From Escherichia coli (lineage in GTDB: Bacteria; Pseudomonadota; Gammaproteobacteria; Enterobacterales; Enterobacteriaceae), in assembly GCF_050320075.1 (NCBI RefSeq), contig NZ_CP190018.1: a stretch of 64,000 nt of DNA. One strand, 5' to 3'. The notes beneath the pieces are model-generated. The model was given only the letters and a program-made list of their open reading frames with translations, was not told the origin of the DNA and did not search any database. Numbering within the stretch: position 1 is the stretch's first letter; each line of letters starts with the position of its first letter. The translations under genes and the position numbers were made by a program. Positions 28,707-29,969 of this stretch are shown here, one piece after another.

Positions 28707-29111
28707 AATCAAATAGCCTACGCAATGTAGGCTTAATGATTCGTCTGAGTTATATTACGGGGCGTTTTTTTAATGCCCCGCTTTACATATATTTGCATTA
28801 ATAAAATAATTGTAATTATAAAGTTAAATGTCGGTAATTTGTATTTAATAAATACGATCGATATTGTTACTTCATTCGCCTGGTGCTCCCTTTTAATTAA
28901 CTGTTTTAGCGGAGGATGCGGAAAAAATTCAACTCATTTGTTAATTTTTAAAATTTATTTTTATTTGGATAATCAAATATTTACTCCGTATTTGCATAAA
29001 AACCATGCGAGTTACGGGCCTATAAGCCAGGCGAGATATGATCTATATCAATTTCTCATCTATAATGCTTTGTTAGTATCTCGTCGCCGACTTAATAAAG
29101 AGAGAGTTAGT
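28707..29111 (+). promoter_or_regulatory. AT-rich focA-pflB upstream control region
   Basis: About 400 bp of very AT-rich DNA before focA; perfect -10 hexamer TATAAT at 29061-29066. The focA-pfl operon is known to carry multiple promoters under FNR/ArcA/IHF control; individual operators not mapped here. Confidence 0.6.
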
Positions 29112-29969
29112 GTGAAAGCTGACAACCCTTTTGATCTTTTACTTCCTGCAGCAATGGCCAAAGTGGCCGAAGAGGCAGGTGTCTATAAAGCAACGAAACA
29201 TCCGCTTAAGACTTTCTATCTGGCGATTACCGCCGGTGTTTTCATCTCAATCGCATTCGTCTTCTATATCACAGCAACCACTGGCACAGGAACAATGCCC
29301 TTCGGCATGGCAAAACTGGTTGGCGGCATTTGCTTCTCTCTGGGGCTGATTCTTTGTGTTGTCTGCGGAGCCGATCTCTTTACTTCCACAGTGTTGATTG
29401 TTGTTGCTAAGGCGAGTGGGCGAATCACCTGGGGTCAGTTGGCGAAAAACTGGCTAAATGTCTATTTTGGCAACCTGGTCGGCGCACTGCTGTTTGTACT
29501 TTTAATGTGGCTTTCCGGCGAGTATATGACCGCGAATGGTCAATGGGGACTAAACGTCCTACAAACCGCCGACCACAAAGTGCACCATACTTTTATTGAG
29601 GCCGTCTGCCTTGGTATCCTGGCAAACCTGATGGTATGTCTGGCAGTATGGATGAGTTATTCTGGCCGCAGCCTGATGGATAAAGCGTTCATTATGGTGC
29701 TGCCGGTCGCGATGTTTGTTGCCAGCGGTTTTGAGCACAGTATCGCAAACATGTTTATGATCCCGATGGGTATTGTAATCCGCGACTTCGCATCTCCGGA
29801 ATTCTGGACCGCTGTCGGTTCTGCACCGGAAAATTTTTCTCACCTGACCGTGATGAACTTCATCACTGATAACCTGATTCCGGTTACGATCGGTAATATT
29901 ATCGGCGGTGGTTTGTTGGTTGGGTTGACATACTGGGTCATTTACCTGCGTGAAAACGATCACCATTAA
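29112..29969 (+). CDS. focA: Formate channel FocA (FNT family), GTG-initiated
   Basis: Track ORF starts far upstream at 28773; conserved N-terminus (M)KADNPFDLLLPAAMAKV begins at GTG 29112-29114, giving 285 aa. Confidence 0.9.
   Translation: MKADNPFDLLLPAAMAKVAEEAGVYKATKHPLKTFYLAITAGVFISIAFVFYITATTGTGTMPFGMAKLVGGICFSLGLILCVVCGADLFTSTVLIVVAKASGRITWGQLAKNWLNVYFGNLVGALLFVLLMWLSGEYMTANGQWGLNVLQTADHKVHHTFIEAVCLGILANLMVCLAVWMSYSGRSLMDKAFIMVLPVAMFVASGFEHSIANMFMIPMGIVIRDFASPEFWTAVGSAPENFSHLTVMNFITDNLIPVTIGNIIGGGLLVGLTYWVIYLRENDHH

Follow-up and report, generated by a model that had tools for sequence, protein, structure and literature searches.

The focA gene of Escherichia coli starts at a conserved GTG codon downstream of an AT-rich region with at least two promoters

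In the window, the whole 64,000-nt stretch of E. coli DNA that was analysed, focA begins at the GTG codon located at 29112–29114, as originally predicted (all coordinates are window positions and refer to the plus strand unless otherwise stated). This is almost certainly the native ycaO-focA region, forming the 5′ end of the focA-pflB operon, with GUG 29112–29114 as the start codon and at least two promoter regions upstream. The locus is the well-studied formate-channel gene focA, and the finding is correct, ordinary and already known: in E. coli, the GTG start is textbook knowledge, as is control from several promoters by FNR, ArcA, IHF and NarL.

The gene order, read from the ORF list and from the RefSeq and K-12 annotations, is ycaO–focA–pflB–pflA. 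The upstream neighbour ycaO (26946–28706; ORF list, and 1761 bp in the RefSeq annotation of an identical genome) is followed by the focA CDS (29112–29969; GTG start, 285 amino acids plus a TAA stop), delimited by the ORF list, annotation, orthologues and protein profiles, and then by its downstream operon partner pflB, encoding pyruvate formate-lyase (30024–32306; ORF list and annotation). The ycaO-focA-pflB order was also found in the Hafnia, Serratia, Yersinia, Erwiniaceae and Edwardsiella loci. Many complete E. coli genomes match the 701 bases surrounding the focA start with 100% identity, and 5423 out of 5426 genomes contain at least 80% of these bases. E. coli K-12 focA (b0904) occupies the same locus and shares with the window the 405-bp spacer, the GTG start and the 285-aa product. 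Between 28600 and 29300, K-12 MG1655 differs from the window by 11 substitutions and no indels; the five substitutions located in the spacer (28742, 28822, 28830, 28873 and 28883) leave all of the motifs named below untouched, and the FNR site, TATAAT, TAGTAT, IHF match, ArcA box and upstream Shine-Dalgarno (SD) sequence are identical in the two strains.

The ycaO-focA spacer is bounded by the ycaO stop codon and extends from 28707 to 29111 (405 bp). Its GC content is 31.6%, whereas the window as a whole has 51.3%. When the 64 kb were scanned in 405-bp steps of sequence, the minimum, 31.1%, was obtained at 28699, on the spacer itself, and only 0.04% of 405-bp windows are as low in GC as the spacer. 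The strongly AT-rich upstream region of about 400 bp that had been described is therefore real and essentially represents the minimum of the window. A palindromic, terminator-like hairpin (AGCCTAC-ATTGC-GTAGGCT; 28715–28733, no strand assigned) was detected just after the ycaO stop by a scan for terminator-like structures and by inspection of the sequence.

Complex anaerobic control from several promoters had also been proposed for this region, along with a search for FNR, ArcA and IHF sites. The search agreed with this proposal: it returned one near-consensus FNR site, which lies under a published ChIP peak, as well as exact matches to the ArcA-box and IHF consensus sequences, to which two sigma-70 peaks and NarL heptamers can be added. 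The FNR site, ATGATCTATATCAA (29038–29051), found by motif search, carries a single mismatch to TTGAT-N4-ATCAA and is nearly invariant. Myers et al. 2013 reported the same motif under their focA FNR ChIP-seq peak, as TTGATATAGATCAT at 953750 in their coordinates, corresponding to 29051–29038 in the window. They place the focA FNR site at −40.5 (their Table 1) and count two sites; searching the spacer with up to two mismatches gave no further match. Our literature search did not find published coordinates for the P6 and P7 promoters. With the centre of the FNR site at 29044.5, the published distance of −40.5 sets the P6 start at ~29085 and places the perfect TATAAT at −24 to −19. The same geometry (centre plus 40.5–41.5) points to TAGTAT (29074–29079) as the probable P6 −10, for a start at ~29085–29086. 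This hexamer is invariant in Enterobacteriaceae. Anaerobic sigma-70 ChIP peaks at focA map to ~29106 and ~28769.

The proximal promoter P6 would thus be an FNR-activated, class II promoter composed of the FNR site at 29038–29051, the putative −10 TAGTAT at 29074–29079 and a start at ~29085. Its leader would measure ~26 nt and the first start codons on it would be the GUGUG pair. At the class II FNR promoters dmsA, narG and yfiD a near-consensus TTGAT-N4-ATCAA is similarly located ~40.5–41.5 bp before the start, and they share with focA a higher sigma-70 occupancy under anaerobic conditions. Unlike them, focA has a second promoter ~320 bp upstream, receives additional contributions from ArcA, IHF and NarL, and carries a consensus −10 hexamer that separates its FNR site from the P6 −10.

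This hexamer is the perfect TATAAT (29061–29066) noted originally, readily recognized in the sequence and in the alignment, and overlapping the listed NarL heptamer TAATGCT. Its perfect match to the consensus, its rarity in the window (one of three plus-strand copies in 64 kb), its invariance in 76 Enterobacteriaceae sequences and its location 46 nt upstream of the start codon would make it a candidate −10 for the main FNR-dependent focA promoter. We nevertheless regard this assignment as improbable. The centre of the FNR site lies ~19.5 bp upstream of the TATAAT centre, which would put FNR near −28, a position incompatible with class II activation, and the published location of FNR leads to a start at ~29085, downstream of the one that TATAAT would specify. 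In addition, TATACT is found in its place in each of the five more distant families (Hafnia, Serratia, Yersinia, Edwardsiella and Erwiniaceae), whereas TAGTAT at the P6 −10 is retained in four of the five. From its position and conservation, TATAAT probably belongs to a promoter overlapping P6. FNR, sitting near −28 relative to a TATAAT-directed start at ~29073, should occlude such a promoter, if it fires at all. An FNR-independent promoter overlapping P6 is reportedly described in the paper entitled 'Overlapping promoters modulate Fnr- and ArcA-dependent anaerobic transcriptional activation of the focApfl operon'.

A consensus promoter scan over 28600–30100 gave one hit, against 3.3 expected by chance, and called neither P6, TATAAT nor the distal promoter; P6 and TATAAT were missed because both lack a good −35. 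The single hit (TTTACA-17-AATAAT, 28782–28810) was rejected, as the scan produced fewer hits than chance and the stretch is poorly conserved.

For the distal promoter, the EcoCyc start 954814, used with a 348-nt UTR in a recent preprint (10.1101/2025.04.04.647229), maps to position 28764 of the window. Eight nucleotides upstream of this start lies the hexamer TATATT (28751–28756), a candidate −10 contained in the block TTATATTACGGGGCG, which is at least 90% conserved and ends just before 28764. The distal start at ~28764 is probably that of the classical P7 promoter. Transcription from this promoter, just after the ycaO stop, would generate an AT-rich leader of 348 nt, so that the 5′ UTR of the long transcript covers 28764–29111 (30S-seq supplementary table and EcoCyc start coordinates, mapped to the window). 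The larger part of the 'control region' is thus transcribed as leader as well. No Rfam match was obtained at E ≤ 1 over 28500–30100; the focA leader thus belongs to no curated RNA family.

The spacer would further hold sites of the ArcA, IHF and NarL types. Motif search located, in the conserved AT-rich block CATTTTAATTAAC / TTTAATTAAC, a sequence agreeing at every position with the ArcA box WGTTAATTAW (AGTTAATTAA; 28893–28902, minus strand), binding of ArcA being known from the literature. The IHF consensus is matched exactly by AATCAAATATTTA (28971–28983; motif search), also within a conserved block; the 64 kb contain six such matches for 2.3 expected. For NarL, the heptamers that PMC2718512 catalogues for focA can be located within ~28798–29069. 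Control of focA by ArcA, IHF and NarL is taken from the literature, and our own contribution for these three regulators consists of sequence matches.

The long leader also includes an upstream ribosome-binding site, focA-213, described in a single 2025 preprint (10.1101/2025.04.04.647229): the 5′ end of the footprint at −213 corresponds to 28899, and mutation of the upstream SD lowered focA-lacZ expression ~10-fold. This upstream SD is GGAGGA (28911–28916; the preprint and the sequence). Its pairing with the anti-SD amounts to −9.5 kcal/mol, and it is a strong, distant SD-like motif with no usable start codon. Across species, GGAGG was found at −199 to −205 in 32 out of 76 and an SD-like G-run at this place in 65 out of 76; the motif sits in an otherwise variable 20-nt stretch separating two conserved AT-rich blocks. 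In the long leader, the upstream site would raise focA translation, reportedly by a factor of ~10. Two other readings of this stretch were rejected. An 11-codon uORF starting at ATG 28916 would have zero spacing between SD and start, and the ATG is missing in another E. coli (L003, ATT) and in most species; a CTCC...GGAG hairpin sequestering the upstream SD from the anti-SD was unsupported (z = −0.28). The situation resembles that of E. coli skp mRNA, which also combines a non-AUG start (GUG) with an upstream SD-like motif that recruits 30S and boosts expression. The skp upstream SD, however, is 14 nt from a strong SD of its own, while that of focA is ~200 nt upstream, in an AT-rich leader, and is combined with a weak SD.

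Several lines of evidence place the start of the protein at GTG 29112–29114. The codon is followed by AAA GCT GAC AAC CCT TTT, giving (M)KADNPF, and focA is annotated from this GTG (858 bp) both in RefSeq (strain 7/2) and in K-12. The comparison with experimentally characterised FocA that had been called for gave 100% identity to PDB 3KCU_A over residues 1–285. Similarly, the NCBIfam FocA equivalog NF008069 scored 634.3 bits (cutoff 440), all profile positions 1–285 of 285 being matched, and TIGR04060 scored 426.7 bits (cutoff 290.1). In the 285-aa form, the Pfam domain PF01226 (Form_Nir_trans; 262 bits, cutoff 34.6) starts at residue 15. A short N-terminus is common to the FocA crystal and cryo-EM structures compared, from E. 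coli (3KCU, 3KCV and 9G49), Salmonella (3Q7K) and Vibrio cholerae (3KLY): the Salmonella chain aligns to the window protein from residue 1 and that of Vibrio from residues 3–4. These chains are expression constructs and represent the N-terminus accepted in the field, not an independent measure of the natural one. At the RNA level, toeprint experiments reported in the preprint (10.1101/2025.04.04.647229) showed that 30S subunits bind the focA start region in a manner dependent on initiator tRNA.

The only in-frame ATG upstream of the GTG is at 28773, 113 codons away, in agreement with the ~110 residues given initially, and an in-frame stop (TGA) occurs at 28746. The accompanying claim that the conserved N-terminus can be reached from the GTG only holds with respect to ATG codons and is slightly too strong on this sequence alone, since five in-frame TTG codons lie upstream (29070, i.e. 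−14 codons, 28992, 28965, 28938 and 28839). An SD sequence was not found before any of the five, and the comparative data rule them out as focA starts.

The comparative set consisted of the 80 closest relatives, all at Enterobacteriaceae level, the start being compared in 79 species-level genomes; five more distant Enterobacterales (Hafnia, Edwardsiella, Yersinia ruckeri, an Erwiniaceae member and Serratia) were added singly. The codon aligned with the focA start was GTG in all 79 Enterobacteriaceae species. Among the distant families it was GTG in Hafnia, Edwardsiella, Yersinia ruckeri and the Erwiniaceae member and TTG in Serratia. None of them carries ATG, which makes the non-AUG start a conserved trait of focA. 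Orthologues thus keep GTG or TTG, and neither an in-frame AUG nor an open frame is conserved upstream. Mangrovibacter and Kluyvera have an upstream in-frame stop 5–6 codons from the GTG; in Klebsiella and Raoultella the distance is 13 codons. In Mangrovibacter the codons between the stop and the GTG are GAG AGA GTT AGT, so that the GTG is the first possible start.

Conservation extends to the nucleotide level. All 79 species share the 32-nt block GAGAGAGTTAGTGTGAAAGCTGACAACCCTTT practically unchanged, apart from three Atlantibacter loci in which it ends in TTC, and this invariance includes every synonymous site of codons 2–6. Over 80 distinct focA genes, synonymous-codon identity reached 0.99 at codons 1–8, compared with a gene mean of 0.58, and no other 8-codon window in focA has a higher value, indicating a nucleotide-level constraint on the initiation region. 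Judged by sequence comparison, these data settle the focA start at GTG.

Two other start positions were weighed against it. A start at ATG 29154 (Met15) would produce a 271-aa FocA, the GTG region being merely a leader. Database entries of this length exist (P0053, P0061 and P0075) and the Pfam domain begins precisely at residue 15, but we hold this form to be very improbable: the amino acids at residues 2–14 (KADNPFDLLLPAA) are conserved throughout Enterobacterales, including where the DNA sequence has changed, the FocA equivalog profile spans residues 1–285, and ATG 29154 has no preceding SD. Moreover, the 30S toeprint at the annotated start region reportedly depends on tRNAi, and expression is lost on mutation of the SD (10.1101/2025.04.04.647229). 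A longer FocA of 398 aa, starting at the in-frame ATG 28773 as a longest-ORF rule calls it, has next to no probability, even though the GTG is preceded by an uninterrupted frame from 28749 onwards, the 398-aa ORF appears in the ORF list and a few automated public calls use it (P0001–P0006): in-frame stops interrupt the frame 5–87 codons upstream in the other 79 species, most of which have no upstream in-frame ATG; the P6 transcript does not include ATG 28773, which follows the distal start site by 9 nt and lacks an SD; and the 113-residue extension, lacking any Pfam domain since PF01226 covers the 285-aa form from residue 15 onwards, would be translated from promoter DNA of 25–32% GC.

Wrong focA starts had been said to be a frequent error of gene finders. 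Miscalls do exist, at 398 and 271 aa among others: 17 of the best 120 cluster representatives have non-standard lengths (398, 359, 353, 325, 296, 283, 278, 275 and 271 aa), and the 398-aa form is the representative of a 4963-member protein cluster, presumably as its longest member. Their alleged frequency is weakly supported, as the exact 398-aa form was found on 2 Logan contigs and the 285-aa form on at least 1000. Start miscalls of focA occur, in a small minority.

The surroundings of the GTG start are also those of a weak initiation region, in line with the earlier suggestion that a weak initiation codon restrains channel expression relative to PflB. The focA SD is GAGAGAG (29100–29106), an invariant run of three overlapping GAGs separated from the GTG by 5 nt. 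With the 3′ end of 16S rRNA it forms a duplex of −4.9 kcal/mol at best, a value equalled by 13% of random 20-mers from the window; the corresponding duplex of pflB reaches −9.2 kcal/mol, equalled by 1% of random 20-mers. The SD_TIR mutation reportedly abolishes focA-lacZ expression (10.1101/2025.04.04.647229). Elsewhere focA, with an abundance of 36 ppm, has been listed among 'gtGTG' genes that lack an SD of 4 nt or more (PMC9841429). The first GTG of this pair is out of frame, is directly followed by TGA as a start-stop and overlaps the true start as GUGUGA (29110–29115; read from the sequence). The GUG-UGA start-stop at focA was already pointed out in the supplement of the preprint (10.1101/2025.04.04.647229). 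Taken with the literature, the features of the start fit a model in which initiation limits FocA relative to PflB. The non-AUG codon and the weak SD would keep the FocA channel much scarcer than PflB, and PflB would be helped by its strong SD and by additional transcript 5′ ends within focA.

Folding of the region predicted a 6-bp hairpin, GUUAGU/GCUGAC (29106–29123), presenting the start codon in a GUGAAA loop. Its predicted energy is −6.1 kcal/mol (z = −3.4), with 2 out of 200 shuffled sequences folding as well. Only two stem substitutions were observed in the distant families and both retain pairing: U·G to U·A in Serratia and U·A to U·G in the Erwiniaceae member. No earlier description of a hairpin at the focA start was found in the literature. 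Given so little variation, the putative start-codon hairpin is only a lead. That the extreme nucleotide invariance around the start reflects more than a weak start, namely an RNA device made up of the hairpin and the GUG-UGA start-stop and imposing a fixed low initiation rate or providing a processing site that couples FocA/PflB stoichiometry, seems to us conceivable and rather unlikely.

In practical terms, the annotation is confirmed and the promoter elements are correctly assigned in this strain; a wrong start call would fix a spurious 113-residue N-terminus on the channel. FocA exports and re-imports formate in mixed-acid fermentation, and its amount has to match that of PflB, which is very abundant. 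A conserved non-AUG start combined with a weak SD fits a limit on the FocA:PflB ratio.

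Within the long leader, i.e. the 348-nt 5′ UTR of the focA transcript that starts at the distal promoter, we observed a strong Shine-Dalgarno (SD)-like motif, GGAGGA (28911-28916; region 28899-28925), approximately 200 nt 5′ to the focA start. This motif matches the published upstream ribosome-binding site ‘focA-213’ (10.1101/2025.04.04.647229). GGAGG was present at the same place (-199 to -205) in 32 of the 76 species, and a G-rich SD-like run of some kind in 65 of them. The 20 nt flanking the motif varied among species, unlike its position.

A small hairpin was predicted at the focA start itself (29106-29123; -6.1 kcal/mol, z = -3.4), with a GUGAAA loop that would contain the GUG start codon. 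Its sequence was unchanged across 79 Enterobacteriaceae, and the predicted pairing was kept in distant families despite two substitutions. No earlier description of this hairpin was found in the literature examined. The true start is overlapped by a minimal start-stop (29110-29115), in which TGA comes immediately after a GTG in another frame; this out-of-frame GTG is absent in Serratia, where focA starts with TTG.

Another, GC-rich hairpin lies 3′ to the ycaO stop (28758-28780), with arms CGGGGCG and TGCCCCG and a T-rich loop of 9 nt. The reported distal transcription start of focA (28764) is located on its 5′ arm, while the distant in-frame ATG upstream of focA (28773) spans the junction of loop and 3′ arm, its A being the last loop base. 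Conservation is high in the 5′ arm, but the alignment of the 3′ arm across species was poor. The ycaO-focA spacer carries no IS element and measures 405 bp, as in K-12. During adaptation of E. coli to the mouse gut, insertions of IS elements into the control region 5′ to focA were reported to have occurred repeatedly and to have been positively selected, with an increase in anaerobic focA transcription (PMC5094792).

The 398-aa form of FocA, miscalled from ATG 28773, was found on 2 contigs only, against at least 1000 contigs for the correct 285-aa form. Nevertheless, the 90% cluster containing E. coli FocA (4963 members) is represented by this miscalled form (P0001 in the protein collection), so that searches restricted to representatives give a misleading FocA length. 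Annotated starts likewise differ from longest-ORF starts in the neighbours ycaO and pflA. The longest ycaO ORF (26913-28706) begins at TTG 26913, the annotated start being ATG 26946; that of pflA (32471-33238, 255 aa) begins at ATG 32471, and comparison with the 246 aa of K-12 pflA implies a start at 32498.

The first large ORF after pflA (region 33240-35070) lies on the minus strand (33448-35070) and encodes a ycaM-like transporter. Whereas ycaK directly follows pflA in K-12, the window leaves no room for it there, and E. coli strain 7/2, otherwise identical to the window around focA, carries a P2-like prophage after pflB. Both differences indicate strain-to-strain variation downstream of pflB.

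At the 3′ end of focA, synonymous variation at codons 270-283 (29919-29960) was the second most strongly suppressed in the gene (synonymous-codon identity 0.90-0.96, against a gene mean of 0.58). These codons lie just 5′ to pflB and to its listed 5′ end (35-nt UTR; K-12 953589, window ~29989). This suppression and location fit a promoter or processing signal inside the focA coding sequence.
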